This document shows positions 1 to 64,000 of a DNA stretch of 64,000 nucleotides, in pieces. Within the stretch, counting starts at the first letter, position 1. Every line of letters begins with the position of its first letter. A program made the translations under genes and the position numbers. Below the pieces are notes generated by a model that searched no databases, had not been told where the DNA came from, and saw only the letters and a list, made by a program, of their open reading frames with translations. This DNA comes from a virus, in IMG/VR virus record IMGVR_UViG_3300046706_000011, positions 26,507 through 90,506 of that record; one strand, given 5' to 3'.

Positions 1-168
1 CTGCCGGTCCGGGCGGACGGGGCCTACCTGGACCTTCCGAAGCGGACGCTGGGGGCCAACCCGTGGCACGGGGTCCGGCATCCGGTCGAGGGGGAGCCGG
101 TGACCGTGGACGTGGGCCTGGACGGCGGGGCCGAGACGGGCAGATCGCCCGAGCTTATTTCACTTTGA
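1..168 (+). CDS. 3' end of an upstream gene (partial), possibly the TraG/VirD4 coupling protein by synteny
   Basis: Open frame 1 (LPVRADGAYLDLPKR...PELISL*) ends in TGA at 166-168, just before the RHH-trbB pair. Trb loci usually have traG here. No diagnostic motif is visible. Confidence 0.3.
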   Translation: MPVRADGAYLDLPKRTLGANPWHGVRHPVEGEPVTVDVGLDGGAETGRSPELISL

Positions 169-179
169 CGAGGTACGCG

Positions 180-554
180 ATGAGGAAGGAACGGAAAGAG
201 GAGCGCACGGTGTCGTTCTTCGCGGGCGACCTGGAGTGGCTTGACCGGCAGGCGGCTCGGCGGAAGGCCGGGCGGAGCGCCCTGCTCGCCGAGATGATCG
301 CGGCGGCGCGGGGCGAGGCGGTCGAGGACGACGCGCTGAAGATGGTGGTGGAGCGCCTTGGCCGGGTGGAGGCGATGGTGAAGTCCCTGGCCGGGATCGC
401 GGTCGGGCTCGACCGCCACGCCCGGCGCACGCGGGCGATGGTGTCGCTGGACCAGCAGGTGGCGATCCTGGGCGAGGCGGCGCGGCCCAGGACGCTGGAA
501 CAATTGAAGCTGAGAACCGAGCAACTTGAGGAGGGATACATCCGTGAGATTTAG
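180..554 (+). CDS. CopG/ribbon-helix-helix protein preceding trbB
   Basis: ATG at 180 after GAGG. RTVSFFAGDLEWLDRQAARRKAGRSALLAEMI fits a strand-helix-helix pattern, in the usual traG-RHH-trbB position. Confidence 0.65.
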   Translation: MRKERKEERTVSFFAGDLEWLDRQAARRKAGRSALLAEMIAAARGEAVEDDALKMVVERLGRVEAMVKSLAGIAVGLDRHARRTRAMVSLDQQVAILGEAARPRTLEQLKLRTEQLEEGYIREI

Positions 555-1521
555 CCAAACAGCCCGTGCGACGACGTTCAACCTGCTCCTCAAGCTTCTG
601 GGGAGCGAGATCGTCGGCCACATGACGGACCCGCTGGTCGAGGACATCTTCCTGAACTCCAACGGGGCCGGGTTCGTCCGGTACGCCGGCAAGAAAACCA
701 AGCTGGGAGTGAGCGTCGATGGCGAGGCGATGAGCCTGATCATCGGCTATGCCGGGACCCTGGTCGGGATGACGGCGGACGGGGTCGCCCGGTTCGCGGT
801 GGACGGCAAGCTGCCGAGCGGGCAGCGGTTCCACGGGGTCGTCCCGCCCCGCGCGGCCCAGGGTCCGTACATCGTCATGCGAAACCCGCCGCGCACGATC
901 CACACGCTGGGCAGCTATGTCGATCAGGGGGTCATGACGGCGGCGGTGGCGGACCAGCTCCGGAGTGACGTGGACGATGCGAAGACCATCGTGATCGGGG
1001 GCGTCACGGGGGCGGGCAAGACCTCCCTGATGACCTGCCTCGTCAACACGGGCGCGGCGCGGGAAGCGCGCATCGTGCTGCTGGAGGACGCCGAGGAAGT
1101 CAACGTGGACGCCGTCGAGGATCGCATCGTCAAGTCCACGCTGGGCGGGACCATGGACGAGCTGGCCTACGACGCGCTCCGGGAACGGCCCGAGCGTATC
1201 TACATCGGCGAGGTTCGCGACCGGGCCATGAAGACGTGGCTTGAGGTCGTCGGCACGGGGCATCCGGGCTCGATGGTCACGCTCCACGCGGGCAGCCCGA
1301 GGGGTGTGATGGCCAGGGCCGAGCAGCTCGTCTCCGAGGCCGTGGTGGACGTCGCGGGCCAGCGCCCGGTGCTGTGCGACACCATCGACCGGGTCGTGGT
1401 CGTGGCGCTGGGCCGGGACGGGAAGCGCCGCGTGCCGGGCGTCTACGCGCCGGCCGGGCATAAGGACGGCCGCTATGAAATTCGCACTGTCGCGGGGGAC
1501 GAAGGTTGTGCTACAACTTAG
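544..1521 (+). CDS. trbB: TrbB/VirB11 secretion ATPase
   Basis: Walker A GGVTGAGKTS, Asp box LLEDAEE, Walker B ALRERPERIYIGEVRD, His box TGHPGSMVTLHA. GTG start after GAGGAGG. Confidence 0.92.
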   Translation: MRFSQTARATTFNLLLKLLGSEIVGHMTDPLVEDIFLNSNGAGFVRYAGKKTKLGVSVDGEAMSLIIGYAGTLVGMTADGVARFAVDGKLPSGQRFHGVVPPRAAQGPYIVMRNPPRTIHTLGSYVDQGVMTAAVADQLRSDVDDAKTIVIGGVTGAGKTSLMTCLVNTGAAREARIVLLEDAEEVNVDAVEDRIVKSTLGGTMDELAYDALRERPERIYIGEVRDRAMKTWLEVVGTGHPGSMVTLHAGSPRGVMARAEQLVSEAVVDVAGQRPVLCDTIDRVVVVALGRDGKRRVPGVYAPAGHKDGRYEIRTVAGDEGCATT

Positions 1522-1522
1522 C

Positions 1523-1539
1523 GGGCTACAATGTAGCCC
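1523..1539. promoter_or_regulatory. 17-bp perfect palindrome GGGCTACA-A-TGTAGCCC (operator) containing a TACAAT -10-like hexamer, upstream of trbC
   Basis: Seen directly. Related copies lie at 8971-8987 and 11928-11944. Confidence 0.65.
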
Positions 1540-1573
1540 ATTCCACGCAACACCCTGGAACGAGGATTTCGAC

Positions 1574-1912
1574 ATGCGGAACCTATCCAAGCTCCGTCAC
1601 CGCGAGGCCCTGGCCTGGACCTTCGCCCTGTGCCTGTTCGCGCTGTGGAGCGACCCGGCCTGGGCGCAGGTCGGCGGCGAGATACCCGGCGGGACGTACC
1701 TGATCTCGATGATGGACACGATCGTGTCCTTCATCCGGATGAACCTGGGTCCGATCGTGGTCGTCCTCGTCGTGTTCGCGGGGGTGTTCGGGTGCGCCGC
1801 GGGCGACTGGAACCGCGGCATGGGCCGGGTCGTCATGGGCCTCGTCGCCGGGGCGTTCATCGCCGGCTCGACGCTGTGGTGGCCGTGGGTCAAGACGTGG
1901 TTCACGGCATGA
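1574..1912 (+). CDS. trbC: TrbC/VirB2 major pilin
   Basis: Signal peptide ending PAWA-Q and two hydrophobic helices, 112 aa, located after trbB. Confidence 0.82.
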   Translation: MRNLSKLRHREALAWTFALCLFALWSDPAWAQVGGEIPGGTYLISMMDTIVSFIRMNLGPIVVVLVVFAGVFGCAAGDWNRGMGRVVMGLVAGAFIAGSTLWWPWVKTWFTA

Positions 1913-2215: not shown

Positions 2216-4735
2216 TTGGGCGTCATCGCAGCGATGAGGGACATGCTCGCCGGAGGCGACTGGTACTTCTGGGACGAGTTGCCGTGGTCGAGCGGGATCG
2301 AGACGGGGGACGGCCCGTGCCGGGTCGTCGAGTGCCGGAACCGGTCCTGGATGTCGTGCCTGAGGCTCGACCCGCCGGACCTGGAGTGCGGGACGGAGGC
2401 GGACCGCCTGCGCCACGCGCTGCTCTTCCACGGCGCCCTGCGGGCCTTGGGCGGCGGGCACGTGGTCTGGATCGACGAGCACCACGACCCGGAGCGACCC
2501 TACCCGGCGGCGAAGCCGGCGAACCCGGCGGCGCGGCGGTTCGAGGAAGCGCGGGACCGGACCTACGGCGAGGTCGTCGGGCACTGGCGCTCGACCCACT
2601 ACCTGACGGTCCAGTGGCGCAAGCCGCCGCAGTGGATCGAGAAGCTGTCCCGGCTGGTCCTCGTGGCGCACCCCGGGGACCGTGCCCGGGACTACGGGCC
2701 GGCCTTCCAGGCGTTCAACGACCGGGTCGCGGGACTGGAGGGGCAGCTCGCCTTCCTCGGCGCGAAGGTGCTGGAGGGGGACGGCCTCGCGGCCTACCTG
2801 CACGACACGGTCAGCCGGGTCCGGCAGCCGGTGAGGTTCGGCAACTGGCAGGACTGGATCTCGCCGCAACTGGTGGACATGCCGATCAACGCCATGGAGC
2901 GGGACGACGGCGGGGCGCTGACCATCGGCGTCGGGGACGACAAGGAATACGTCGTCCCGGTCACGGTCCACAGCTACCCGGCGGGCGTCGATGCCGGGAT
3001 ACTCGACGGGACGGAGGACTTCGCCGGGGTGGCGTCACTGCCGATCACATACCGCCGCGTCACCCGGATCGCGATCCAGGCGAAGACCGAGGCGGTCAAG
3101 GACATGGCCGCGTTGCGCCGCAAGGCGGAGATGACCCGCCAGAACCTCCTGCGGACGACCCTCCAGCAGTTCTACCCGAACGCGCCCCAACGCCTGAACT
3201 ACGAGGCCGACCACGCCGCGCAGGAGGTCGAGGAATGGCTCAAGGACCTTGCGCGGGGCAAGACGCTGCGGTGCCAGAACACGACGACCTTCCTCGTCTA
3301 CCACCGGGACGCGGGGGTCGCGATGGAACAGGCGAGGATGATCCTGATGCACCTCCGGGAGACCGCGGGGCTCGTGGCCCAGGTCGGGCGGCTCGGCGCG
3401 CTGGAGAGCTTCCTGGGGACGGTGCCGGGCAACAGCGACCACGACTTCGTCCGGCCCTACACGAACACCTTGGCGAGCGGCGGTCTGGCGCCGCTGTCGA
3501 ACACCTGGGGCGGGCGGCGGCACGACCCGGTGCTCAAGGGTCCGCCGCTCCTGGTCGGCACGACGAACGAGTCGATCCGGCACCACGTCGTCCTGTCGCC
3601 CGAGGGCGACGGCATGGCGAGCCACGCGGTCATCACCGGCCCGTCCGGGTCGGGCAAGACGGCCGCCATCAACGAAATGTGCTTCGGTTTCCTGAAGTAC
3701 CGGGGCACGCGGGTATTCCGGATCGACAAGGGGCGGTCGGCCTACGTCTCGACCCTGTGCGCCGGGGGGACGATCATCGACCCGGTGCTGTCCGGCGAGG
3801 GTTTCCAGCCCCTGCGTTTCATCGCGGACTGGAAGGAGCGGGTCTGGGCGAAGGCATGGCTGACAGCCTACGTCCGGATGCGCGACCCGGCGCTGGCCAA
3901 CGACCCGGCGGTGGACGCGGCGATCAAGGACACGCTGGAGTGCCTGGGCAAGGCGCTCGACCCGGACGACCTGGACATGTCGGCGTTCGTCAACGCGCTG
4001 TCCCATCCGGGGTTGCAGGCGGCCCTTCGTCCCCTGACCCGCGACGGTTCGCTGGGCTACGTGTTCGACGCCATCGACCGCCGGTCCTACGACGCCGACT
4101 GGACCAGCGTCGAGCTGGACGAGCTGGTCGAGGACGAGGAGGTCGCCGGGCCGCTGATGGCGTACCTGTGGCACATGATCCGGCGGCTGTGCCACCGGGA
4201 CCGCCCGATGCTGATCCCCATCGACGAGGCGTGGATGGCGATGAAGGGACCGTTCAAGGACATGCTGAACAAGGGGATGAGGACGTTCCGGCGGGAGAAC
4301 GCGCGGGTCGTGTTCGCGTCGCAGAGTGCGGTGGACATCGCGTCGAGCGAGCTGGCGGGGATCATCGTGAACTCGTGCTCGCTGAAGATGGTCTTCCCGG
4401 ACAGCGCGATCGCCTCCCCCGAGGTCGCGGCGGCGTACATGGTCCTCCAGGTCCGCCCCCAGTGGATGGATCGGCTGAACTACCGGTTCCAGGGCGGGGA
4501 GCCCCGTTTCTGCCTCGTGATGCAGGACGGGGGCGCGCGGTTCATGCACTTCGACATGGAGGAGGAGACCGACCCGGAGGCGTTCTGGATGTGCTGCGCG
4601 ACCAACAGCGGGGCGGTGGCCGACGCGCTGCGCGTCCGGGACATGGGAGGTTCGTTCCTGGACGACTGGCTCGGCGAGAAGGTGCACGGCAAACGGGCGC
4701 GGCCTCCGGTCCCGGCCCTGGCGGCAGCCGAATGA
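2216..4735 (+). CDS. trbE: TrbE/VirB4 ATPase
   Basis: 839 aa. HAVITGPSGSGKT Walker A, IDKGRS, IDEAW Walker B, FRRENARVVFASQS. The start could instead be the ATG at 2234. Confidence 0.93.
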   Translation: MGVIAAMRDMLAGGDWYFWDELPWSSGIETGDGPCRVVECRNRSWMSCLRLDPPDLECGTEADRLRHALLFHGALRALGGGHVVWIDEHHDPERPYPAAKPANPAARRFEEARDRTYGEVVGHWRSTHYLTVQWRKPPQWIEKLSRLVLVAHPGDRARDYGPAFQAFNDRVAGLEGQLAFLGAKVLEGDGLAAYLHDTVSRVRQPVRFGNWQDWISPQLVDMPINAMERDDGGALTIGVGDDKEYVVPVTVHSYPAGVDAGILDGTEDFAGVASLPITYRRVTRIAIQAKTEAVKDMAALRRKAEMTRQNLLRTTLQQFYPNAPQRLNYEADHAAQEVEEWLKDLARGKTLRCQNTTTFLVYHRDAGVAMEQARMILMHLRETAGLVAQVGRLGALESFLGTVPGNSDHDFVRPYTNTLASGGLAPLSNTWGGRRHDPVLKGPPLLVGTTNESIRHHVVLSPEGDGMASHAVITGPSGSGKTAAINEMCFGFLKYRGTRVFRIDKGRSAYVSTLCAGGTIIDPVLSGEGFQPLRFIADWKERVWAKAWLTAYVRMRDPALANDPAVDAAIKDTLECLGKALDPDDLDMSAFVNALSHPGLQAALRPLTRDGSLGYVFDAIDRRSYDADWTSVELDELVEDEEVAGPLMAYLWHMIRRLCHRDRPMLIPIDEAWMAMKGPFKDMLNKGMRTFRRENARVVFASQSAVDIASSELAGIIVNSCSLKMVFPDSAIASPEVAAAYMVLQVRPQWMDRLNYRFQGGEPRFCLVMQDGGARFMHFDMEEETDPEAFWMCCATNSGAVADALRVRDMGGSFLDDWLGEKVHGKRARPPVPALAAAE

Positions 4736-5023: not shown

Positions 5024-5371
5024 ATGGATTGGCAGAAAATCAAGGCAACGGCTGGAGCCGTGACGGGGTCGGTTTGGCGGAATGGCCGCAATGTCCTGGC
5101 GTTTGCCGGCGCGGTATCCATCGGGGTCGATGCCTTGGTGCGTTCACAATTGGACGTGGCAACGGTCCCGTCGGTAACAATCGAACTAGGCAAATTCCTG
5201 GAGCTGAAGTACCAGATCGTGGCGATCACCTTGATTCCGTTGTTGGCGTTGATTGCGTTGTTGGCGTTCATTTCCATTACGCGCGGGTTCTGGGATGGGT
5301 TCATCGCCTTCACCGAGTCCACCGCATGGGACGCAACGAAGTGCGCGTTGGCGAAGCGGTTCCGCCGGTGA
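5024..5371 (+). CDS. small membrane protein, lower GC
   Basis: MDWQKIKATAG... with hydrophobic IVAITLIPLLALIALLAFISI. Its stop overlaps the next GTG (GTGA). Confidence 0.55.
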   Translation: MDWQKIKATAGAVTGSVWRNGRNVLAFAGAVSIGVDALVRSQLDVATVPSVTIELGKFLELKYQIVAITLIPLLALIALLAFISITRGFWDGFIAFTESTAWDATKCALAKRFRR

Positions 5372-6687
5372 CGACGGTTTCGCGCCTTGCCGCGGCGCTC
5401 ATCGCGGGGACGGTCCTCGCCGGGAGCGGCCCCGCCCTGGCACAGTTCCGGGTCGGCGGGCTCGTCCCGGTCGGAGCCGAGGACGTGGCCGCCATCGACG
5501 CGGCGCTGGACGAGATGCGGAGCGCCGGATGGACGGCGGAGGAAATGGACATCCGGCTTCGTCGGGAAGGCTACGTGCTGGACCGGGCGGTCCTGGACGG
5601 CGACGTGGCCGTGGCGGACGGCCGGGTCCGGGGCATGGTCGCCGAGGTGGCCGGCGCCGGGGACCCGGCGGGCGGGGACCCGGCGGGCGGGGACGGCCGG
5701 GCGCCGAACCGGCAGCCGACCCCCTTCGAGCGCGGACTCGCGGGCGTCGCGGGCAACGTCGGGAACACCGACGAGGAAATCCTGCGGGCGATGCAGGGCG
5801 GGAACTCCCAGCTCTGGGCGCGGATGACCGGCATCCTGTCGGGACGCTCGGTCACGAACCGGGCCAACCAAGTGATCGACGGAGCGACCGGTGCCGCCAC
5901 GCGCCCGATCCGGGAAGCCGGCGACGCCGCCGTGAACACCGTCATGCAGCCGATCGAGGACACCGTTGACACCGCCGCCCAGTCGGCCATGTGTTCCCTC
6001 GGCTCCGCCGCCCTGGGGGCTGCCGCCTCGCTCGTCAGCGCCGTGTTCAGCGGGGGCAAGGCCACGTACGGCGCCCAGGTCGCGCAATGGCTGACGGGGA
6101 TCAGCAGTCAAGTCTGCCTGGGCCAGCAGCTCGCGGTGCAGAAGCGCATGGTGGCGCTCCAGCAGCGCATGGTGGCGCCAATCGGACGTAACGTGGTCGG
6201 TCAGGCGGGCGGCGTCAGCGGCGTGGTGCTGGATTCCATCGGCCTCCTCGACGCGGAAGAGGTCGCCAGGGGCTACCAGGACGGCGCCAGCGCCGACCTC
6301 GCCCCCGGCGCCTCCCTGGCGATGCAGCGCCTCCTTCGCGCCCGGACGGATCAGGCGCGGCGTGCCGCGCTGGAGACGGCGGCGCTCAACGTCGCGGCGG
6401 AGCGGGCCTATTCGGATATGGCCGACCGGGCGCTCGACCTGAGCCAGTCGGCCCGGGGACAGACCTCGGCCGTCCAGGCGCTGGCCCAGTTGCAGCGGGC
6501 CAATGAGGGGGCGGCGGCGGCGCGGCATTCTTCCCAGATGGCCTTCAGCAACGCGGCCCTGGTAGCGGAAGAGGAGGACCGCGCGAGCGAGCGCCTTGCC
6601 GCCGCCCGCCGGGCGCGGTTCTATTCGGGCCTCGGCCCGTCCGGCAGCCAGGAAGCGGCGGCGCCGGGTTTCAACCTTTTCCAGTGA
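5368..6687 (+). CDS. trbJ: TrbJ/VirB5-like minor pilin with long N-terminal extension
   Basis: Signal peptide (PALA-Q). C-terminal LSQSARGQTSAVQALAQL and ...RRARF...FNLFQ resemble TrbJ. Located before trbK/trbL. Confidence 0.7.
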   Translation: MTTVSRLAAALIAGTVLAGSGPALAQFRVGGLVPVGAEDVAAIDAALDEMRSAGWTAEEMDIRLRREGYVLDRAVLDGDVAVADGRVRGMVAEVAGAGDPAGGDPAGGDGRAPNRQPTPFERGLAGVAGNVGNTDEEILRAMQGGNSQLWARMTGILSGRSVTNRANQVIDGATGAATRPIREAGDAAVNTVMQPIEDTVDTAAQSAMCSLGSAALGAAASLVSAVFSGGKATYGAQVAQWLTGISSQVCLGQQLAVQKRMVALQQRMVAPIGRNVVGQAGGVSGVVLDSIGLLDAEEVARGYQDGASADLAPGASLAMQRLLRARTDQARRAALETAALNVAAERAYSDMADRALDLSQSARGQTSAVQALAQLQRANEGAAAARHSSQMAFSNAALVAEEEDRASERLAAARRARFYSGLGPSGSQEAAAPGFNLFQ

Positions 6688-6696
6688 GGAGTCGTC

Positions 6697-6963
6697 ATGC
6701 GTGTTCGAACATGGGTCTTTGCGGCCGGTCTAGCCTTCTCTGGCATCTCGCCGGCCCTGGCCGGGGACCGGGATGTCCGGGAGCCGGCGCGGGAACGCGC
6801 GGCGCAGGCGGACCGGGCGGCGGACGCGCTGCCGGACCGGGAAGCGCGGGACGACGCGGAGGACCGCCGCGTCCTGGCCAACCGGGCTCGGTTCTACCAG
6901 GGCCTCGGCCGGCTTCGGGGCGGCGGGCGGCGGATCGACCCGTTCCCCGCCCGGGGGAACTGA
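6697..6963 (+). CDS. TrbK-like small exported protein (entry exclusion candidate)
   Basis: 88 aa with signal peptide, between trbJ and trbL. Shares the RARFYxGLG motif with the TrbJ C-terminus. No lipobox Cys. Confidence 0.5.
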   Translation: MRVRTWVFAAGLAFSGISPALAGDRDVREPARERAAQADRAADALPDREARDDAEDRRVLANRARFYQGLGRLRGGGRRIDPFPARGN

Positions 6964-6966
6964 CCC

Positions 6967-8238
6967 GTGGACGAGTTGCCGGGGTTCACGCTGACCCCCG
7001 ACCTCGGGTCCGGGGTCGGGAGCGCGGCGGCGGCCAGCCTCGACGCCATCGACCACGCCTACCTCATGGTCCAGGACCTGCTCAACGCCGGGTTCCCGTA
7101 CCTGGAGGGCGTGGTCTGGGCCTTGTTCGGGATGGCGGCCGGCTGGGCGGTGCTGGTGGGCGTCATCGACGTGGCGTCGGGCGGGAGCAACCCGGTCGCC
7201 CTGGTCACCGGGGCCTTCCTGCGCCTGGGGATCTTCGTGTGGCTGGCGGGGGTGTGGAAGACCTTCATCGACGCGGTCGGCAACTTCGCGCTCGACCTGG
7301 GCGTCCGGATCAGCGGATCGACGGTGCCGCGCGACCAACTGATGGTGCCGAGCCGCCTGTTCGCGCAGGGAAACGAGCAGGCCGCGAAGGTGATGGCGGC
7401 GAAGGACGCGCTGTGCGACGCCTGGAAGAGCTGCCTCATGACGTTCGGCGACCAGCTCCTGCTGGAGATCATCGCCATCGCGATCTGGGTGATGTTCGGG
7501 GTCCTGGTCCTGGCCATGGTCATGGCCGCGCTGTGGCTGAAGAAGGCCGGGCTGTTCAGCTTCCTGTTCCTGCCGGCGAGCCAAGTGAAGGCGACGGCGT
7601 TCCTGGCCGAGGGGTCCATCGCCGGGGTGTTCCAGGCGTTCATGTGGCTGGTCTTCATAACCTTGGTCGCGGGATGGGGGACCCAGGTCCTGGGGCTCCT
7701 GGCGCTGCCGGAGCACCCGGACGCGGCGAGCCTCGTCCCGGCGGTGCTGGTGGTGTCGTTCATGGCGGTGATGGCGTGGCAGTCCCGGAGCTACGCCTCG
7801 GGGCTGGTCTCGGGGGTCCCTCGGATCGGCGGCGAGGCGGTGACGGCGGCGGCGCGCAACGCGCTGGGCTGGGCGACCGGAGGGACGGCCATCGCGTCGC
7901 GCATGGAGTCCGTCGCCCATCGCGAGCGAAACAGCGTCCTGGGCGCGGCGCGGGACGGCTTCTCGGCCGCCCGCAGCCTCCCGGGCCGGGCGATGCAGGC
8001 GACGCGGGGCCGGGCGGCGGGGGCCGCTCCGGGTGGTGCACGGGCAGGAACGGCGGCGGCGCGGACCACGTCCCCCGGCGGTGGCGGAGGCAGCGCCTGG
8101 AACAACGGGCCGACGCCGAAGCAACAGCTTGCCGCCCGGCACCGGGGCGTTGACATCTCCGGGATGTCGCGGGGACAGGCGTCGCAGGCCCTGCATCGTC
8201 AGGGGAACATGGACCAGAGCTGGTACGAGGGGAAGTAA
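6967..8238 (+). CDS. trbL: TrbL/VirB6 polytopic membrane protein
   Basis: Multiple TM segments, ATAFLAEG motif, GLVSGVPRIGG followed by a Gly/Ala-rich tail typical of TrbL. Confidence 0.82.
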   Translation: MDELPGFTLTPDLGSGVGSAAAASLDAIDHAYLMVQDLLNAGFPYLEGVVWALFGMAAGWAVLVGVIDVASGGSNPVALVTGAFLRLGIFVWLAGVWKTFIDAVGNFALDLGVRISGSTVPRDQLMVPSRLFAQGNEQAAKVMAAKDALCDAWKSCLMTFGDQLLLEIIAIAIWVMFGVLVLAMVMAALWLKKAGLFSFLFLPASQVKATAFLAEGSIAGVFQAFMWLVFITLVAGWGTQVLGLLALPEHPDAASLVPAVLVVSFMAVMAWQSRSYASGLVSGVPRIGGEAVTAAARNALGWATGGTAIASRMESVAHRERNSVLGAARDGFSAARSLPGRAMQATRGRAAGAAPGGARAGTAAARTTSPGGGGGSAWNNGPTPKQQLAARHRGVDISGMSRGQASQALHRQGNMDQSWYEGK

Positions 8239-8240
8239 CC

Positions 8241-8951
8241 ATGGGCATGCCGAAGATCGTCACGCTGTTGACCAACCGCCTGCGCCTGGACCGCCCCCGG
8301 CGCGTCTTCTCGGTGCGCGCCGACGAAGTCCGCTCGACCCGCAGCGTCGGGCGGATGTGGATGGCGGCGGGCCTCGTGTTCGCCTACCTCTACGTGGACG
8401 AGCGCCATGCGCACCAGGAAACCCTGTCGCGGGCGCAACCCGTGCTGGTGTCGGTCCTGGGGCCGGACAGCCGCCCGGTGGCGACGTTCGCCGCGGACCA
8501 CATGGCGGACGACGGATGGGTCTCGGTCGCCAAGGCGGTCGCGGCGCAGCACGTCGTCCGGATGCGCGAGATGACGAACCCGATCGACGTGTCGCTGGCC
8601 CGGCTGGACGAAGGGCGGTACTTCGTGAAAGACGCCGCCGCCGCGAAATACGCGCGCTTCGTCGGCTCGCACCCCTACGACGACCTGGCGAAGCGCCGCC
8701 TGAACCGCCAGGTCCGGCTGGAGGAGGTCGGGCCGTCGCTGGAGTCCAGCCAGTCCCCGTCGTCCCGGCGGCTGCGGGTCATCGTCCAGTGGCCGGAGCG
8801 GACCTGGAGCGGGACCAAGCTGGAGCAGCAGGCGACGCGCGTCGGCTGGGTGGACGTCGAGCGGGTGGACCGCGTGCCGCCGGATTACCGGAAGGCCAAC
8901 CCGCTGGGGATCTTCGTGGTCGATTACGACACGGACACGCCCACGGGCTGA
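8241..8951 (+). CDS. trbF: TrbF/VirB8
   Basis: Single N-terminal TM, VQWPERTW, C-terminal NPLGIFV motif. Confidence 0.85.
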   Translation: MGMPKIVTLLTNRLRLDRPRRVFSVRADEVRSTRSVGRMWMAAGLVFAYLYVDERHAHQETLSRAQPVLVSVLGPDSRPVATFAADHMADDGWVSVAKAVAAQHVVRMREMTNPIDVSLARLDEGRYFVKDAAAAKYARFVGSHPYDDLAKRRLNRQVRLEEVGPSLESSQSPSSRRLRVIVQWPERTWSGTKLEQQATRVGWVDVERVDRVPPDYRKANPLGIFVVDYDTDTPTG

Positions 8952-8987
8952 TTGCGCCGGCCCGCTGAGCGGGCTATAATGTACTAC
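8952..8987 (+). promoter_or_regulatory. sigma70-type promoter TTGCGC-N17-TATAAT upstream of trbG, with operator-like GGGCTATAATGTACTAC over the -10
   Basis: -35 at 8952-8957 and -10 at 8975-8980, 17-nt spacer. Confidence 0.65.
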
Positions 8988-9009
8988 ACTTTCAAAGGCG
9001 GGACGGAAC

Positions 9010-10020
9010 GTGAAGAAACCCCTGGTTCTGATGACGGCCGGGTTGCTCGGGGCCTGCGCGTCGGGCTCGACCGCGCCGCCGCCGCTGGTGACCTACGTCC
9101 CGGCGATCCCGATCCCCCTGGCCCAGCCGGCGGCCCAGGCGGGCGCGGCGGGACCCCCGGCGACCCTGGTGAACCCCATCCCGACCCCGGAGCCGACCCG
9201 CTACAAGAGCCACGAGGCGGCGACGGCGGCGGCATCGCGCGCGGCGGTCGTCGATGCCCGCAGCGGGACGTTCGAGGGCGAGACCCTGAACTACCTGTAC
9301 CGGACGGGGCAGCGGTACAAGCTGGTGCTCGACGCGCCGAGCCACGAGGAATGGCAGGACGCCGGGGTGACCCAACTGTTCCTGGGACCGGGCGACGGGT
9401 CCGAGCCGGGGGTCTTCTTCGACGATCCGACGTGGTTCACGCAGGAGAAGCTGGCGAGCGGGATCGACCAGACCTCGATGCGGGCCAAGCGGGACCGGGC
9501 CCGGCAGGTCAGCGACGGCAAGTACCAGACCATCGTGACCCTCAAGTGCTGGAAGCCGGGCGCGGTGACGAACGCCTCGGTCACGACGCCGCAGCGCCCA
9601 TACCTGCTCCGGCTCCACTGCGCGACGCGCAAGGGGACCGGGGGCTACAACGCCACGGTCCAGTTCACCAGCGTCGGGGAGCAGGGCGTGCCCCCGGCCG
9701 AGGCCTTCGCGTCGGCCGAGGCGCCTGTCCCGGCCGGGTCGGGCCCGGTCGTGAAGGACACGGGCTACGCCGTGAGCGGTCCCGCCGAGTTCCGGCCGAG
9801 GGAATGGGCGGCGTGGAACGACGGGGCGGACACCCACGTCCGCCCGCCGGACTCGATACGGACCCGTCCGGTCCCGATGCTGCCGCCCGCGTCGCAGTTC
9901 GGCGTGGACCCGCAGACCGGCGAGTATTTCATCCGGGGGCTGCCGGCCGAGATCCGGTTCCCGTGGGGGCCGGAGCAACAGGTCGTCGTGAGAAGGACCA
10001 CCCAGGGAGAACCGCCGTGA
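9010..10020 (+). CDS. trbG: TrbG/VirB9-like core complex protein (lipoprotein signal)
   Basis: Lipobox LLGAC, VTNASVTTPQRPYLLRL and YAVSG..FRP..AWNDG..T patterns, located between trbF and trbI. Divergent. Confidence 0.72.
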   Translation: MKKPLVLMTAGLLGACASGSTAPPPLVTYVPAIPIPLAQPAAQAGAAGPPATLVNPIPTPEPTRYKSHEAATAAASRAAVVDARSGTFEGETLNYLYRTGQRYKLVLDAPSHEEWQDAGVTQLFLGPGDGSEPGVFFDDPTWFTQEKLASGIDQTSMRAKRDRARQVSDGKYQTIVTLKCWKPGAVTNASVTTPQRPYLLRLHCATRKGTGGYNATVQFTSVGEQGVPPAEAFASAEAPVPAGSGPVVKDTGYAVSGPAEFRPREWAAWNDGADTHVRPPDSIRTRPVPMLPPASQFGVDPQTGEYFIRGLPAEIRFPWGPEQQVVVRRTTQGEPP

Positions 10021-11288
10021 ACGACACCGACAGGGAAGACGCCGTGACCAAGGGCTCGGCACCGCTGGAGCGCCGGAAGCGGGGCGGGTGGGGCAGCGTG
10101 GTCAACCTGAAGGGGGTCGGCCTGATCGGGGCCGTCCTCGCCACCGGAGGCGTGGGCCTGTGGGCGGCCTGGGGCGTCCACGGGGAGGAGGAGCCGAAGA
10201 CGGTGGAAGCGAAGATCAATTCCGTGCCGTTCAACGCGGCGACCGCCCGTCCGATGCTGCCGCCCCCGATGGCGACCTCGGCGGAACCGGGGGCGTTGCC
10301 CCCCGCCGCCGGCCGCCCGGAGGACCGAGGGGGAGGGCGCGCGCCGCCGCCGCCCAAGCCGCCGCCGCCGCCCGTCCCGCGCCAGAACCGCCCGAAGTCC
10401 CTGGTGGCGGCGCCGGGGAACTGGGGGTCCGGGGCCACGCAGGCGACGGCGGTCTCACAGGCCCAGGCCGGGCGGGCGCGGGGTCGAGGCATGGACGACG
10501 ACGGGAACGACGACGGGGCCGCGATGGGATATTCCGGCGACGGCGAGGGAATGGACGACGGGGACGGTCACGGCGGCAGCCTGCGGTCCGAGCGGCGGCC
10601 AAGCGCCCCGGAGCGCGGGCGGGCCGGAAAGGAGCGGTTCTTCCGGGGCGAAGGGATGGGCGGGACGGCGCTCGACGTCCCCGGCGAGCTTCTTCCCGAG
10701 GTGGGCGGCTGCGTCCTGAAATCGGAGGAGTTCATCCCGGTCCAGGCCGAGCGGTTCACCAGCACCGCGCTGCCGGGCCGCATCCGGGTCCGCATCCCGC
10801 AGCCGGTCATGGGCCAGCACTTCCTCGGGAACGGGCGGGTCGAGGCGTGCGAGGCGATCCCGGCGTTCTCGACGATGTCGCTGGCGATCAACACGGCCGG
10901 GACGGCGCGCGGCGACACGCGGGTCCAGGCCTGCGCGCTGCGCCTGGACCTGAACGGCGGGGGGCGGCGGGTCCTGGGTTGCCAGCCGTCCCACGGCGGG
11001 GATGGGGCCGGCGGCATCGAGGCCGGGGTGGACTACGACCTGACCGGCCTGGGGGCGGCGATCCTGCTCGATGCGACGATGTCGGTCATAAATTCGCTCG
11101 GGGACCTGATCGCGGGCATTCCGGGCATCGCGCTCCAGGTCGGCGGCGAGCGGGTGGGTGCGATGGGAGACGAGATCATCCGGCAGGAGTTCGAGCGCCC
11201 CCCGACACTAACGATAGAGGCTGGTGCGTTGTTCGGAATTCAGCTAAATGCTGACCTGTCAATGCCACTGCGCAGGCGAGTCCGCTGA
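10017..11288 (+). CDS. trbI: TrbI/VirB10
   Basis: GTGA overlap with trbG. N-terminal TM, Pro-rich linker, STALPG, DGAGGI..GVD and C-terminal RPPTLTIEAG...NADL motifs. Confidence 0.85.
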   Translation: MNDTDREDAVTKGSAPLERRKRGGWGSVVNLKGVGLIGAVLATGGVGLWAAWGVHGEEEPKTVEAKINSVPFNAATARPMLPPPMATSAEPGALPPAAGRPEDRGGGRAPPPPKPPPPPVPRQNRPKSLVAAPGNWGSGATQATAVSQAQAGRARGRGMDDDGNDDGAAMGYSGDGEGMDDGDGHGGSLRSERRPSAPERGRAGKERFFRGEGMGGTALDVPGELLPEVGGCVLKSEEFIPVQAERFTSTALPGRIRVRIPQPVMGQHFLGNGRVEACEAIPAFSTMSLAINTAGTARGDTRVQACALRLDLNGGGRRVLGCQPSHGGDGAGGIEAGVDYDLTGLGAAILLDATMSVINSLGDLIAGIPGIALQVGGERVGAMGDEIIRQEFERPPTLTIEAGALFGIQLNADLSMPLRRRVR

Positions 11289-11636
11289 ATGCCCCGGAGA
11301 ACCGGAAAGATCACCGCCGATACGTCGTTCACGGGATTGCCGAGGGAGATGATCGACGCCGCCCTTGAGATTGCGGACAAGGAGTGGACCTACCCGAAAT
11401 ATGTATACGCGGACGCCATCCAGGAGTTGATCGACCGGCTGGACCGGGGCGAGGTGATCCAATGGCCCGCGTCTCGACCGAACACGGGGAAGAGGCCCTA
11501 CCATGTCCGGATCGATGTCGGGCTGATCAATCGGCTTCGTGAGACGTGCGAGAAACACAACGTCCGAAAGAACATCTTCTTCCTGGTTGCGCTGCGGGAG
11601 CACCTGAACCGCAACGGGTACCGCTTCGAGACTTGA
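11289..11636 (+). CDS. protein with two tandem ribbon-helix-helix-like motifs
   Basis: TSFTGLPREMIDAALEIA..KYVYADAIQELI and PYHVRIDVGLINRLRETCEKHNVRKNIFFLVALREHL. Confidence 0.55.
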   Translation: MPRRTGKITADTSFTGLPREMIDAALEIADKEWTYPKYVYADAIQELIDRLDRGEVIQWPASRPNTGKRPYHVRIDVGLINRLRETCEKHNVRKNIFFLVALREHLNRNGYRFET

Positions 11637-11661
11637 CCGGGACCGGTCGCCCCTGAGCGGT

Positions 11662-11877
11662 TCAGCCCGGCCCGGGGCGGACCGCGAGACGGCGTCGGAT
11701 GCGGCGGGGGGGCCGGTTCTCCCACCGGTCGAGCCAGCCGTCCACCGCGACGCCGACCCGGAAGGACAGCAGGCACACCAGCGCCGCCATGCCGGCGTCG
11801 ATGCCGGGCCTCAGGGACGGATCGACCTTCCAGGCCGTGCCGGCGACGGCGAGGGCGAACACCAAGACCAAATACAT
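11662..11877 (-). CDS. small 2-TM membrane protein
   Basis: ATG at 11877 with AGGAGAG RBS. MYLVLVFALAVAG..., 71 aa with a basic tail. Confidence 0.5.
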   Translation of the reverse strand: MYLVLVFALAVAGTAWKVDPSLRPGIDAGMAALVCLLSFRVGVAVDGWLDRWENRPPRRIRRRLAVRPGPG

Positions 11878-11908
11878 AACGGCTCTCCTAAGGTCATATA
11901 TCGAACGT

Positions 11909-11944
11909 TTGCGGTGGCGTTCAAACTGGAGTACAATGTAACCC
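11909..11944 (+). promoter_or_regulatory. sigma70-type promoter TTGCGG-N17-TACAAT with operator GGAGTACAATGTAACCC over the -10
   Basis: -35 at 11909-11914 and -10 at 11932-11937. The near-palindrome matches the 1523-1539 motif. Confidence 0.65.
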
Positions 11945-12161
11945 ACGGCGGGCCGGCGGGCGAACGAAATCCCTCGCGCAGGGGTGGACACAAAGTTGCC
12001 GCATTTGCTAAGGGAAGACGGATCGGAAGAATATTCGGTGACGGAGGAAGAAATGGTCCTGAATGGACGCCAATTGAGAAGACTTTTCAACACAGACGGT
12101 ATAGTTGGAAACCTGTCCGGACCGGGCGAATTCAGGACCGGGAACCTCGGAGGCCTGCGGC

Positions 12162-12851: not shown

Positions 12852-12910
12852 AGCAGGCGGCTTGTGAACTGAACCGTCGCGCACCTTTGCGCACAAATTA
12901 GAAGGCAGCC

Positions 12911-13543: not shown

Positions 13544-13749
13544 TCGTCCGAGTTCAGGATGCGGGTGTTCTCCTCGATCCGGCGCGTGAACCGCTCAAGG
13601 TCCTTCGCGGTGGGCTGGCGCCCCTCCTCCTGCATCGTCTCCAGTTCCCGCCGCCATTCGTCGTAGGAGCGCTTCGCGTGCGGGTAGGCCTTCAGCGCGG
13701 CGATGGTCAGGTCCATGGCGCCGAGGATCAGGGCGACGGGGACGGTCAT
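13540..13749 (-). CDS. small lysis-module protein, 69 aa
   Basis: MTVPVALILGAMDLTIAAL..., ATGA-coupled to the upstream lipoprotein gene. Confidence 0.55.
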   Translation of the reverse strand: MTVPVALILGAMDLTIAALKAYPHAKRSYDEWRRELETMQEEGRQPTAKDLERFTRRIEENTRILNSDD

Positions 13750-19784: not shown

Positions 19785-19787
19785 CGG

Positions 19788-40364: not shown

Positions 40365-40365
40365 A

Positions 40366-62077: not shown

Positions 62078-62581
62078 TCACGGGGCGGTCGGTTCGGCCT
62101 GGCCTACCAGCGGTAGGCCACTGGCCGGCGTCGCGGGGGCGGGCTCGGCCTGGCCTACCGCTGGTAGGCCACTGGGCGGTTCCGGGGCCGGCGGCTGCGC
62201 AGGGGCCGGTTCCGGGGGGGGCGGTTCGGTCGGGGCGGCGGCGCGGGCCGGCTCGGCGGGTCCCTTCGGCTCGGCAGCGGCCGGGTTCAGGGCGATGAGC
62301 ACGGCCTCGCCGCCGACGACCTCGACGTCCAGGACGCCGACCAGCTCGCGCACGCCGTCGCCCACGTCGGCGTCGCAGCGCACGGTGACCTGGGCGGTCC
62401 CGGGGCGGCCCACGGCGACGATGTCCCCGGCCATCCCGGCGTCGAGGGTGGAGACGGTGACGACGCCGGGGTCGCTGGTCTCCCAGCGCGGGTCGCCGTC
62501 GATGGTGGCTGCGTTGCCGTAGCGGTCCTGGAGGGAGACGGCGACTCGGGTCTTCTGGTCGGCGGTCAGTACGAACGGCAT
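62078..62581 (-). CDS. Ig-like (Big_2-type) virion protein with Pro-rich tail
   Basis: DRYGN.A, WETSDP.VVTV, A.G.PGTA.VTV. Confidence 0.7.
   Translation of the reverse strand: MPFVLTADQKTRVAVSLQDRYGNAATIDGDPRWETSDPGVVTVSTLDAGMAGDIVAVGRPGTAQVTVRCDADVGDGVRELVGVLDVEVVGGEAVLIALNPAAAEPKGPAEPARAAAPTEPPPPEPAPAQPPAPEPPSGLPAVGQAEPAPATPASGLPLVGQAEPTAP
62100..62120. repeat. 21-bp palindrome, copy 2
   Basis: TGGCCTACC-AGC-GGTAGGCCA. Confidence 0.9.
62151..62171. repeat. 21-bp palindrome, copy 3 (inverted spacer)
   Basis: TGGCCTACC-GCT-GGTAGGCCA. Confidence 0.9.
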
Positions 62582-62587
62582 GGGGCG

Positions 62588-62758
62588 TCATCCTTTCGAG
62601 CGGACCGGGCCGACCGTGAACGTCACGGTCGGCGGCGGGTCCTCGGGGGAAGGGGGAGGGGGATCGGGCGGCCGGGGCTTCACGACCGCCTCGACGCGCA
62701 GGCCTTCGATCGCGCCCGCGCGGAGCAGGGCGGCGAAGGCCTCGGCGAGGTCCGTCAT
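62588..62758 (-). CDS. small Pro-rich hypothetical protein, 56 aa
   Basis: MTDLAEAFAALL...TVTFTVGPVRSKG fills the gap between two co-oriented genes. Confidence 0.5.
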   Translation of the reverse strand: MTDLAEAFAALLRAGAIEGLRVEAVVKPRPPDPPPPSPEDPPPTVTFTVGPVRSKG

Positions 62759-62768
62759 GGCCGCGCGG

Positions 62769-63002
62769 TCAGGACGTCGCGACGGCGGCGCCGAGCAGGA
62801 CGCGCAGCCAGGACGTGCCGTTCGAGTAGGCGAGGCAGGGCGCCCCGGCGGCGCCGTTCGTCACGGAGATGATCCGCCCCTTGTTCTCGGCGGCGGACGG
62901 GACGGTGGCGACCGTGTACTCGGGCGCGGCGAGCGCCTTGGCAAGGGACCTGGAGCCGATCTGGCCCCACCGCGGGTCGTTGGTCAGGGCCATCGCGGTC
63001 AC
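62769..63002 (-). CDS. small capsid-decoration-like protein
   Basis: YTVATVPSA...G....VTNGA.G.P.LAYSNGT.W.R motif, two genes downstream of the capsid gene. Confidence 0.6.
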   Translation of the reverse strand: MTAMALTNDPRWGQIGSRSLAKALAAPEYTVATVPSAAENKGRIISVTNGAAGAPCLAYSNGTSWLRVLLGAAVATS

Positions 63003-63832
63003 TCCTGGGACGGCTTGGAGGAACGCGCGGGGGAGCGCCGGGGCGACTCAGCCTTCGGCCTGGGGGCCTTCTCGCCGGGCTCGTCCGGTTCGGGGGCCGG
63101 CTCAGGGGCCGGTTCCGGCTCGGGGGACGGCTCCGGGGCTGGCTCGGGCTCGGGGGGCGGCTCGGGGGACGGCGGCTCGGCCTGGCCTACCAGCGGTAGG
63201 CCACTGGGCTTGACCTCCGGGGTCAGGGACTCCTCCGGGATGTCCCGCTCGGTCGGCACGGCGCCCTCCTCGACGATCCGCCGGACGGTCTCGGGGTCGT
63301 CGTCCAGGGACGGCGCGACCGGGTCCTGCGCGGTCTGCTCGGAGACCGAGGTGTCGGAGTCCGGGCGTTCCTCCCAGGGCTCGGAGACGCGCACGCTCCC
63401 GTCGAGGTTCGGCGAGCGGGGGTCCTCGTAGGGGGCGGACGCCTTCCTGCGGGAGCCTTCCTGGCCCTTCAGGGTGCGGTCGTTGCCGGCCTCGTCATGG
63501 TCGGGGATCGCCTTGGTCTTGGCGTCGCGGAAGTGGGCGTTCTGGAGCTGCCAGCGCTCCTCGTCGGTCGGGACGCGGTCGCGGTTGCGCTCGGCCTGCT
63601 CCATGGCCTTGCGCTCGCGCTCCGGGTCGGCGTCGGCCGGGATGTTGATGAACTGGCCGACGTCGGCGTAGGGCGGGGAGCCGAGCAGGTCGGAGTTCTC
63701 GGTGAACTCCTGGATGCGGTCGGGCGGGTAGCGCTCGGCGAGCGGCTTTTGCTGCTCGGCGTCGTCGCGGGCCTTGGCGTCGGCCTCGGCCTCCTGTTGG
63801 CGGCGGGCGCGGTTGAACGCGGACATTCCCAT
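62999..63832 (-). CDS. acidic, Pro-rich protein immediately downstream of the capsid gene
   Basis: AGGAG RBS, MGMSAFNRAR N-terminus and PEPAPEP low-complexity tail. Confidence 0.65.
   Translation of the reverse strand: MGMSAFNRARRQQEAEADAKARDDAEQQKPLAERYPPDRIQEFTENSDLLGSPPYADVGQFINIPADADPERERKAMEQAERNRDRVPTDEERWQLQNAHFRDAKTKAIPDHDEAGNDRTLKGQEGSRRKASAPYEDPRSPNLDGSVRVSEPWEERPDSDTSVSEQTAQDPVAPSLDDDPETVRRIVEEGAVPTERDIPEESLTPEVKPSGLPLVGQAEPPSPEPPPEPEPAPEPSPEPEPAPEPAPEPDEPGEKAPRPKAESPRRSPARSSKPSQE
63183..63203. repeat. 21-bp palindrome, copy 4
   Basis: TGGCCTACC-AGC-GGTAGGCCA. Confidence 0.9.
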
Positions 63833-63893
63833 GATGTGCTCCTGTTCCGGTGCTTGGGGCGGGGGACGGGCGGGACGGCCCCGCCCGGACCCG

Positions 63894-64000
63894 TCAGCTC
63901 GCCGCGCTGGTCAAGCGGTGGCGGAACAGCACCATCCTTATTGACTTGGCGTCGTATACCCTGGACCAGCTCGCGCCGGTCGCAAGGACGGTGTTGTCCG
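63894..64000 (-). CDS. C-terminus of major capsid protein (SPP1 gp13-like), partial
   Basis: Translated by hand as DNTVLATGASWSRVYDAKSIRMVLFRHRLTSAAS*, matching the N..LA...W.RVY..K.I..V...H ending of this coat family. Confidence 0.75.
   Translation of the reverse strand, partial: DNTVLATGASWSRVYDAKSIRMVLFRHRLTSAAS

Follow-up and report, generated by a model that had tools for sequence, protein, structure and literature searches.

A divergent Trb-type conjugation module adjoining the late genes of a soil siphovirus

Phage-plasmids of the P1, N15, SSU5 and VP882 types combine virion genes with plasmid-type functions, and P1-like elements acquire mob/oriT only once phage genes are lost (PMC10879196). 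Phage-ICE tandems, such as the Streptococcus SMphage-Tn5252 type, place phage and conjugation modules side by side with co-transfer possible, retain two integrases together with attL, attM and attR, and have been documented in 612 cases from seven phyla (PMC13651849). A 2025 review states that neither a conjugative phage-plasmid nor a conjugative prophage is known (PMC12282955).

The window described here, that is, the whole stretch of DNA analyzed, comprises 64 kb at the end of the 90.5-kb IMG/VR record IMGVR_UViG_3300046706_000011 (record positions 26,507-90,506), a metagenomic, unclosed contig with the status 'linear' and a CheckV completeness of 88%. It probably derives from an uncultured, large and temperate siphovirus from soil with a genome of >100 kb, and its host is probably a high-GC alphaproteobacterium. 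This genome size is consistent with the lineage, as relatives of its gpJ sit on contigs of 106-137 kb and the related provirus G001 (3300034069_002149) is 143 kb. Like the Trb (MPF-T, P-type) plasmids of alphaproteobacteria, the locus keeps the order T4CP, trbB, C, D, E, (J), L, F, G, I; unlike them, its module is extremely divergent and is flanked by phage genes instead of a plasmid backbone. With the phage-plasmids it shares virion genes, plasmid-type functions, a repressor and the lack of any integrase that we could find, but the contig has neither partition genes nor a plasmid replication initiator. The adjacency of phage and conjugation modules is that of the phage-ICE tandems; however, no integrases or att sites of their kind were found on the contig, and the present adjacency is conserved across deep divergence. 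The Rhizobium siphoviruses RHEph10, vB_RleS_L338C and RHph_N1_10 (110-117 kb) share the lambda-type tail tip, with L, K, I, J and two downstream genes 35-40% identical and in the same order (J proteins, 36%). No similarity is detectable in terminase, portal, capsid or replication genes, and these phages have no T4SS (annotated region) and nothing like the 22-kb fibre block that separates adaptor from capsid here.

The conjugation genes lie at the left end of the window, co-oriented on the plus strand and mostly spaced by -11 to +13 nt (overlaps or gaps). The window opens with the 3' end of a VirD4/TraG-type coupling protein gene (1-168; Pfam T4SS-DNA_transf, E=1.3e-36; TrwB_AAD_bind, 2e-16) that begins upstream of the window at contig position 25157. 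Just upstream of this gene, in the same orientation and also outside the window, is a relaxase gene (contig 22918-24930) whose product retains an intact His triad (HxDxxxHxH motif) as HDDTDHPHAH and matches Pfam Relaxase at E=3e-4 (21.5 bits vs a cut-off of 24.6). A search for relaxase and VirD4, as advised by the first-pass annotation, located both upstream of the trb genes, the relaxase as a candidate with a profile score below the cut-off. A small ORF (g029; 210-554; 78% identical to its homologue in L004) separates the coupling protein gene from trbB and possibly encodes an accessory or regulatory protein. It is followed by the TrbB/VirB11 ATPase (544-1521; Pfam T2SSE, E=4e-24), the TrbC/VirB2 pilin (1574-1912; Pfam TrbC, E=1.5e-8), an ORF assigned to VirB3 by position, with no family match (1909-2202; 87% identical in L004), and the TrbE/VirB4 ATPase (2216-4735; weak matches to Pfam AAA_10 and the TraG P-loop). 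Next come a TrbJ/VirB5-position protein with a signal peptide and a coiled coil (5368-6687) and a small secreted protein with a signal peptide in the TrbK position (6697-6963). The series ends with TrbL/VirB6 (6967-8238; Pfam TrbL, 1.4e-9), TrbF/VirB8 (8241-8951; Pfam VirB8, 2.8e-8), TrbG/VirB9 (9031-10020; Pfam CagX, 4e-7, weak at 30.5 bits vs a cut-off of 34.2) and TrbI/VirB10 (10017-11288; Pfam TrbI, 2e-9). The TrbL, VirB8, TrbI, TrbC and T2SSE matches all exceed their Pfam cut-offs. The intact trb operon proposed at first pass thus holds by family match for B, C, E, L, F, G (weakly) and I, while J and K were identified by position and signal peptide, with no family match in Pfam or PHROG searches. 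No TraF-like S26 peptidase was found with the Trb module.

A motif scan found a predicted operator palindrome, GGGCTACAWTGTAGCCC, at 1523-1539, 8971-8987 and 11928-11944, with a further copy at contig 22835 in the 795-nt gap that precedes the relaxase gene. Three sites have <=3 mismatches, vs 0.03 expected, and the fourth is weaker; no site was found beyond the transfer region. The Trb proteins are as divergent as first suggested. VirB4 has nine full-length homologues, all metagenomic and 58-61% identical, and one 568-aa fragment at 88%; all other proteins, including any named TrbE, are <=28% identical to it. Its Walker A and B motifs (GPSGSGKS and DEAW) are invariant across this clade. In the VirB4 tree the present protein groups on the Trb side with 100% support, on a branch of length 2.85. 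The clade was not found in 185,579 prokaryote species genomes or, by megablast, in PLSDB.

The remainder of the window is a siphovirus late region, read mostly on the minus strand. Its lysis cassette (13540-16363, -) comprises a small membrane protein (13540-13749), a lipoprotein/spanin-like protein with a lipobox in its sequence (13746-14207), an endolysin/transglycosylase (14207-15022; phrog_873 endolysin, E=1.5e-50) the paralogues g047 and g048, and also g049, and is kept in G001-G005. The distal fibre genes (16512-22199, -), which have homologues in Rhizobium phages, encode a 1090-aa Calx-beta protein (Pfam, 5e-17), a 483-aa tail fibre (PHROG) and two small conserved proteins. The tail tip consists of gpJ (22196-27103, -), gpI (27100-27729, -) and gpK (27738-28538, -), with matches to FNIII-A_GpJ (2.5e-30), Phage-tail_3, Lambda_tail_I and NLPC_P60. 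Between gpK and gpL a moron island is called on the opposite strand (28702-30624, +), where GC drops to 0.649 and relatives have a TnpB gene. The stretch 31603-41529 (-) contains gpL, gpM, chaperones, tail terminator, Neck1, head closure Hc1 and adaptor Ad1 (Pfam Phage_tail_L, 7e-46; Phage_min_tail, 9e-18; PHROGs 179, 169, 161 and 477), together with the tape measure (32693-37189; Pfam TMP_3, 1.7e-28) and a major-tail candidate (37950-38444, -). A 22-kb fibre/lectin/glycanase-like block (41808-63826, -), collinear in G001 and G002, lies between the adaptor and the capsid gene; it encodes a LamG protein of 1325 aa, a beta-helix spike of 522 aa, a GH5-like protein of 1595 aa, proteins of 900 and 529 aa, a head-fibre-like protein of 939 aa and g087-g090. 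The window closes on the 3'-terminal 34 codons of the gene for the major capsid protein (63894-63998, -), whose translation matches the C-termini of L103 and the G002 MCP. Because the contig stops inside this gene, the late region is incomplete at its capsid end. The capsid-to-lysis operon that had been described as apparently intact is not so, since Pfam searches of the 90.5-kb contig, window included, found no portal, scaffold or terminase, and the suggested search for terminase and portal accordingly returned neither. In the close relative L103, portal, scaffold and MCP lie directly upstream, and a portal is also encoded by G001, along with a TerL that contains an intein. An F-type tailocin, which would have tail genes but no head, connector or packaging genes, was rejected on account of the adaptor, head-closure and neck genes and the partial MCP gene. 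That the contig is unclosed and stops short of terminase, portal and the bulk of the capsid gene, so that its left 26 kb is not seen to join packaging genes, weighs against a single element.

The two gene sets had been described as head to head; they converge, tail to tail. T4SS genes on the plus strand finish at 11288 and accessory plus-strand genes at 13543, while the minus-strand late operon finishes at 13540, so that g043 and g044 overlap by 4 nt at their 3' ends. The junction genes are the RHH-like g040 (11349-11636, +), the membrane protein gene g041 (11662-11877, -), g042 (12162-12851, +) and g043 (12911-13543, +), all without a Pfam match, and there is no recombinase among them. An independent Logan contig spans 5349-15126 with zero differences, at a depth of 11.7 over the T4SS part and 10.6 over the phage part. 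Being bridged in this way at equal depth, and collinear in a divergent relative (G002, below), the trb-phage linkage is not the misassembly that had been flagged as a risk. Words shared around the Trb module reach 14 nt at most, vs 13-17 nt in controls. Searches with the Phage_integrase and Recombinase profiles found no tyrosine integrase or large serine recombinase in the 90.5 kb or in G001-G004. Neither an integrase on the contig nor att-like repeats above chance around the Trb module were thus found to bound the phage part, on a contig that is short of the full genome by about 12% or more. The sole recombinase on the contig is the 206-aa serine resolvase of a low-GC, IS607-like insertion, adjoining TnpB and lying outside the window; within the window, profile searches agreed with the first reading in finding neither housekeeping genes nor a tyrosine integrase or transposase.

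Our comparison of the linkage among relatives relies on G002 (IMG/VR 3300045996_003284; 74 kb), as the records of the others stop near the lysis genes. Both G001 and G002 share a collinear structural and lysis module with the present element at 28-70% identity. G002, with a GC of 0.60 vs 71% here and a gpJ 51% identical, is collinear from VirD4/TrbB through lysis, tail and head to scaffold and MCP (phrog_247, E=4e-101), its VirD4 and Trb operon likewise converging on the lysis end; a relative with the same layout, as the first-pass annotation had proposed to seek, therefore exists. Unlike the present ones, the Trb proteins of G002 are of canonical alphaproteobacterial type and a mere 24-32% identical. 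Its cassette is only 27% identical to the present one and 53-82% identical to that of Skermanella rosea plasmid pSR-1, which has no adjoining phage; being nearer to pSR-1's, it indicates that Trb cassettes have been exchanged. The G001 record differs in having no T4SS, and it stops 3.2 kb beyond the lysis genes. If that end were an att site, the Trb modules of G000 and G002 would fall just outside the prophage, an observation that counts against one element. Against L004, dN/dS was 0.24-0.32 for VirB11, VirB3 and VirB4 (VirB11 0.32, VirB3 0.24), 0.56 for the pilin and 0.21-0.24 for tail genes including the tail tip, while dS was 0.22-0.31 in T4SS genes vs 0.21-0.32 in tail genes. These values show purifying selection, as judged from substitution ratios, on T4SS genes that co-diverge with the tail genes. 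The linkage conserved in G002, the matching dS and the lack of att repeats and integrase bear out the view that this is not a recent ICE insertion. Both modules are similarly GC-rich, as was first noticed (0.713 for conjugation genes vs 0.70-0.74 for structural genes; 0.69-0.77 across the window), and this agreement only shows a common host background.

The left flank of the contig looks phage-like in its repressor fold, its DnaB gene and g011, whose homologues are found at a constant position within the head module in five relatives; CI-like repressors and DnaB occur on ICEs and plasmids too. The model of g001 (pLDDT 81.6) has a CI/LexA/186-repressor fold, matching LexA, lambda CI and 186 CI (Foldseek prob 1.0) with an rmsd of 3.3-3.5 A to the lambda CI C-domain, and on this prediction g001 would supply the CI/LexA-type repressor of a temperate phage. 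RecA-mediated self-cleavage is doubtful, since its sequence has no obvious Ser-Lys dyad. The flank also encodes a weak DUF1376-like protein, and an element-specific 21-bp repeat is found both at its extreme left end and in the late genes. No cargo or metabolic genes were found in the left 26 kb. As for the plasmid nature and circularity raised at first pass, six-frame searches gave no ParA (AAA_31) or ParB (ParB_N), the contig has no recognizable plasmid Rep, and the record is linear. Finding neither an integrase nor plasmid replication and partition genes also weighs against a single element.

We lean slightly towards the reading that a complete Trb-type (MPF-T) module is part of the siphovirus genome, occupying a cargo site with the early/immunity region on one side and the lysis end of the late operon on the other. 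As annotated, the module appears to comprise relaxase, VirD4, TrbB, pilin and VirB3/4/6/8/9/10 under its own predicted operator regulation. In the lysogenic (repressed) state, the relaxase would nick a putative oriT in the ~0.8-kb gap upstream of its gene, and the coupling protein and Trb channel would pass one strand of the entire element to a recipient through cell contact, a route that needs no phage receptor. Upon induction, this DNA would instead be packaged into capsids (lineage capacity 106-143 kb) and exit by lysis. Trb cassettes would be exchangeable, with G002 having another, pSR-1-like cassette at the equivalent position. Of the dual spread by virion and conjugation first put forward, the linkage is real and conserved, while the plasmid nature found no ParA, ParB or Rep to uphold it.

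We judge it rather unlikely that two elements merely adjoin, a siphovirus prophage having integrated beside the Trb operon of a conjugative plasmid or ICE, at the operon's 3' end (either a phage-ICE tandem or a conjugative replicon bearing a prophage); the conjugative element would in that case account for the left 40 kb, and phage early genes and an integrase would lie beyond the unseen terminase. The documented tandems offer a precedent, the G002 cassette matches the phage-free pSR-1 cassette gene for gene, the provirus G001 has no T4SS up to its record end, Trb cassettes are 27% identical while the phages share 50%, the operator set is confined to the transfer region and not common to the phage genes, and the contig is unclosed. 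Yet neither kind of integrase and no att-like flanking repeat turned up, the junction genes are small RHH/HTH proteins, and the left 26 kb has none of the plasmid or cargo genes sought. Moreover, two elements 10% apart in GC and at ~50% protein identity agree in adjacency and orientation, dS is equal in both modules, the VirB4 clade occurs in none of the species genomes searched, and the 21-bp repeat is common to the left end and the late genes.

Exaptation of T4SSs is recurrent, and the Trb system of a single phage could serve lysogens otherwise, through adhesion/biofilm pili, mobilization of other DNA or protein secretion. We consider this improbable, because relaxase and VirD4 are DNA-transfer-specific parts and here lie directly upstream in the same orientation, with the His triad intact and the operator shared; no effector-like genes were seen. 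An assembly chimera, or a decayed, tailocin-like tail remnant on a conjugative element, might be suspected of a metagenomic contig in which Pfam matched no capsid, portal or terminase, but is very improbable and largely refuted by the bridging contig at equal depth, the collinear G002, the adaptor, head-closure and neck genes with the capsid gene 3' end, the genes directly upstream in L103 and the purifying selection on tail genes.

With the Trb module read as part of the siphovirus genome, the wider proposal, plausible though a little short of probable, is that of a soil siphovirus lineage in which a conjugation system is a standing part of the genome, giving two horizontal routes, and in which the cassette can be replaced from resident plasmids. 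If true, the element would qualify as a conjugative phage, of which no example has been found according to the 2025 review (PMC12282955).

A complete, maintained Trb system is joined to a large siphovirus genome on the 90,506-bp IMG/VR contig (G000), and we regard this physical and evolutionary linkage, which is unusual, as solid. The contig, of which bases 26507-90506 form the window, has an overall GC of 0.707 and a CheckV completeness of 88%. Candidate hosts are Azospirillaceae or other high-GC Alphaproteobacteria. Because the high GC produces many spurious ORFs, genes were called with a codon-bias model, and the resulting 90 genes were annotated with Pfam and PHROGs. On the circularity check proposed in the first-pass annotation, IMG/VR lists the record as linear, and no terminal direct or inverted repeat was found at the contig ends. 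Neither half had a megablast match in PLSDB or INPHARED.

Immediately outside the left window edge is a candidate relaxase of 670 aa, which has the His triad HDDTDHPHAH and a Pfam Relaxase match of only E=3e-4. After it comes the gene for a VirD4-type coupling protein (E=1e-36), whose final 168 nt begin the window. The + strand then carries TrbB/VirB11, the TrbC/VirB2 pilin, an ORF in the VirB3 position, TrbE/VirB4, two secreted proteins assigned by position (a coiled-coil one as TrbJ, a small one as TrbK), TrbL/VirB6, TrbF/VirB8, TrbG/VirB9 (a weak match) and TrbI/VirB10. Most of these genes overlap or lie a few nt apart, and the Trb operon read from the sequence at first pass is borne out for VirB2/4/6/8/10/11 and, more weakly, for VirB9. 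A 17-bp palindrome, GGGCTACAWTGTAGCCC, is found 5' of the relaxase gene, trbC, trbG and the RHH-like genes after trbI and is confined to those sites within the contig (0.03 sites expected from shuffled sequence). The restriction of this predicted operator to the transfer module suggests that the module would be run by its own regulatory circuit.

The late operon, on the - strand, extends from the right window end to 13540 (Pfam and PHROGs) and converges on the Trb operon, rather than lying head to head with it as originally described. First in transcription order are the last 34 codons of the major capsid gene (63894-63998), followed by 22 kb of large fibre, lectin and glycanase-like genes; the head-tail adaptor, head closure, Neck1 and tail terminator; a major-tail candidate, chaperones, the tape measure (1498 aa), gpM and gpL; a 3-kb moron island on the opposite strand; gpK, gpI, gpJ (1635 aa) and fibres; and, at the operon end, an endolysin, a lipoprotein and a small membrane protein. 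We identify the capsid gene through G002, a divergent 74-kb relative in which a 330-aa ORF, preceded by a scaffolding protein and directly upstream of the homologue of g090, matches phrog_247 'major head protein' at 4e-101 and has a C-terminus that aligns with the translated last 105 nt of our contig. A closer relative (L103, GC 0.71) continues beyond our contig end with capsid, scaffold, a small moron island and portal. The 143-kb provirus relative G001 has a portal matching a solved portal at 8e-41 and, upstream of it, a presumed TerL of 1036 aa (L086, a locus of G001, 11825-14935) with an intein matching DnaB and DnaX mini-inteins. Neither portal nor terminase was found in our own contig. 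The capsid-to-lysis operon is thus real, but it was first read as apparently intact and is broken at the capsid gene. An F-type tailocin was rejected because connector and capsid genes are present.

Several features of the late region deserve mention in their own right. The 22-kb block (window 41808-63826; GC3 0.97-0.99) places very large receptor-binding genes between capsid and head-tail adaptor, which is an unusual location, and it is kept in G001 and G002; its products may be head-attached fibres. The moron island (window 28600-31600, GC 0.649) divides gpK from gpL, and several relatives have a TnpB gene near this site, in the gpL-gpK interval or just upstream of gpM. L103 has a further - strand island in its head module (6693-8267), between portal-associated genes and the scaffold gene, with a sugar-transferase-like gene and two lipoprotein genes, one homologous to the moron g057. 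In the lysis region, g047 and g048 (window 15019-16040) are tandem 170-aa paralogues that both match one and the same gene in G002, and likewise in G001. ARAGORN called a tRNA-Pro(GGG) of 97 nt at window 43172-43268, on the + strand inside the - strand gene g076; it has no Rfam tRNA match and is probably spurious. PDB sequence searches with the 1595-aa and 900-aa proteins, g001, g004 and a 427-aa ORF of G001 gave nothing useful.

Five lines of evidence establish that the linkage between the Trb and phage genes is real. First, window 5349-15126 is bridged with zero differences by a Logan contig whose run is probably the source, from the TrbJ-position gene through TrbI and the junction into a partial endolysin gene, at a depth of 11.7 on the T4SS side vs 10.6 on the phage side, which makes the misassembly considered at first pass very unlikely. 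Short contigs of both modules, roughly 87-99% identical, also occur in two soil runs of a separate study; none of the sequencing runs listed was an RNA holder. Second, G002 (GC 0.60), from a separate metagenome, is collinear from VirD4/TrbB through lysis, tail, connectors and fibres to scaffold and capsid, with structural proteins 28-70% identical to ours. Third, both modules are under purifying selection: against close fragments of the T4SS (L004, 76-88% aa identity) and of the tail (L005, 89-93%), dN/dS is 0.24-0.32 for VirB11, VirB3 and VirB4, 0.56 for the pilin and 0.21-0.24 for gpJ, gpI and gpK, and dS is equal across modules (T4SS 0.22-0.31 vs tail 0.21-0.32). Fourth, neither a tyrosine integrase nor a large serine recombinase was found in our contig or in G001-G004, and direct repeats flanking the Trb module do not exceed chance (14 nt vs 13-17 nt in controls), so the integrase and att sites that could have bounded the phage part did not appear. 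Fifth, the tetranucleotide composition of the cassette correlates with that of its own phage at r 0.99 in G000 and 0.97 in G002, and the homologous Skermanella cassette has a GC of 0.673 vs 0.600 in G002.

On this evidence a single fused phage-conjugation element has, in our judgement, a somewhat better than even chance of being the correct reading. The main rival, in which a prophage sits next to the Trb genes of a conjugative plasmid or ICE, as a tandem or by insertion, seems less likely to us. Phage-ICE tandems were reported in 2026 (PMC13651849), and G001, classed as a provirus and without a T4SS, has a record that ends 3.2 kb past its lysis genes; were that end an att site, the Trb modules would fall immediately beyond the prophage boundary. 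The records of three further relatives (G003-G005) likewise end in or near the lysis genes. Such a juxtaposition has to contend with the absence of both recombinase and att repeats, the absence of plasmid backbone and cargo genes, an arrangement kept across deep divergence, the equal dS of the two modules, and a VirB4 clade that is not in sequenced genomes. The trb-phage linkage first proposed recurs in G002; of the interpretation as a conjugative phage-plasmid, the Trb-siphovirus linkage stands but the plasmid markers do not.

The record ends form a pattern of their own: four independent assemblies (G001, G003, G004 and G005) stop inside the lysis genes or a few kb beyond them, where the Trb module begins in G000 and G002. 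Assembly may be interrupted there by shared or variable sequence.

Among the matches listed by a word-index search, which misses distant VirB4s, nine homologues of our VirB4, all metagenomic, have 58-61% identity and one 568-aa fragment has 88%, and all remaining matches are at <=28%; the divergence suspected for the Trb proteins thus extends to a highly unusual VirB4. A search with the clade alignment did not find the clade among 185,579 species genomes (GTDB) or in IMG/VR, and recovered only one 4-kb contig, from a metagenome collection. Single-protein IMG/VR scans with VirB4, the adaptor Ad1 and DnaB returned nothing, or just a 35% DnaB match. A maximum-likelihood tree from a quick search, which carries a long-branch warning, places the clade on the Trb side with 100% support, at the end of a branch of 2.85 substitutions per site and in a polytomy with ordinary TrbEs; it does not separate a sister relationship to the clade of G002 from other placements.

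The Trb proteins of G002 are only 24-32% identical to ours and match, gene for gene, those of the Skermanella rosea plasmid pSR-1 at 53-82% identity, where the cassette lies beside ordinary plasmid cargo without phage. Since the G002 cassette is far from ours and close to that of pSR-1, either the two phages gained Trb systems independently at one site or one cassette was replaced from a plasmid. Different cassettes at the same genomic position in two deeply diverged relatives point to a Trb and phage combination that would have been repeatedly selected rather than formed by accident. The G002 and pSR-1 cassettes have in common a TraF-like S26 peptidase and an unusual ~640-aa protein in the TrbJ/VirB5 position (5566-7479 of the G002 locus L079; 22493-24418 of the pSR-1 locus L091; 53% identical). 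The G002 protein is a right-handed beta-helix (Pfam Beta_helix 5.5e-28), and this protein may be a pilus-tip adhesin or glycan depolymerase.

The left 26 kb of the contig encodes the regulator g001, followed by ~1.1 kb without clear coding signal, and DnaB, a DUF1376-like protein, an SNase-family nuclease, a C5 methyltransferase and a run of small - strand genes, the last two being pentapeptide-repeat proteins that adjoin the relaxase gene. An IS607-like insertion at contig 6964-9950 (in locus L001), with a 206-aa serine resolvase and TnpB/OrfB_IS605, stands out by its 55-61% GC within 71% GC. We favour the assignment of this region to the phage, on three observations. The model of g001 (pLDDT 81.6) matches LexA, lambda CI and 186 CI, with an rmsd of 3.3-3.5 A to the lambda CI C-domain; homologues of g011 are found in five relatives, always at one position of the head module; and an element-specific 21-bp motif, ACCAGCGGTAGGCCACTGGGC, occurs in five copies in one orientation. 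Four copies lie in late genes (window 49153-49173, 62106-62126, 62157-62177 and 63189-63209), within the 3' tails of g081, g087 (twice) and g090 and encoding PSGLP(L/A)VGQA(E/D)P, and the fifth, at the far left end (contig 48-68), is non-coding and follows the g001 terminator. The motif was not found in G001 or G002 at the DNA or peptide level. ICEs too can carry CI-like repressors and DnaB, so these genes do not settle a phage origin. Neither ParA nor ParB was found in the contig, and the plasmid status first proposed accordingly loses its defining phage-plasmid markers.

Between g001 and dnaB (contig 1100-2300) every frame is without coding-type GC3, and this stretch may be an origin or regulatory region. 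The two neighbouring pentapeptide-repeat proteins (contig 21281-22122; 8281-9122 of locus L002) lie beside a putative oriT gap and are possibly DNA mimics. Small ORFs, the C5 methyltransferase and the SNase-family nuclease come after them on that strand, a layout that resembles the anti-defence leading region of conjugative plasmids; g008-g026 may form such a region.

Mobile elements are commonly classed by their route of transfer, through virions or by conjugation. Reviews state that no conjugative phage-plasmid or prophage is known (PMC12282955), P1-like elements acquired mob/oriT only once phage genes had been lost (PMC10879196), and a 2026 preprint names 'conjugative phage-plasmids' only in passing; in the literature we found no tailed-phage lineage described as having a complete T4SS. 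The Methylobacterium indicum plasmid pVL1_2 was considered as a relative and set aside as a different lineage, because its MCP is just 39% identical and its baseplate is that of a myovirus. If the fused reading is true, a dual-route element would be bound neither by the host range that receptors impose on phages nor by the need of plasmids for cell contact. Through it, plasmids and phages could exchange genes directly, as the 53-82% identity between a Trb cassette and that of the Skermanella plasmid illustrates, and such elements would confound virus/plasmid classifiers.
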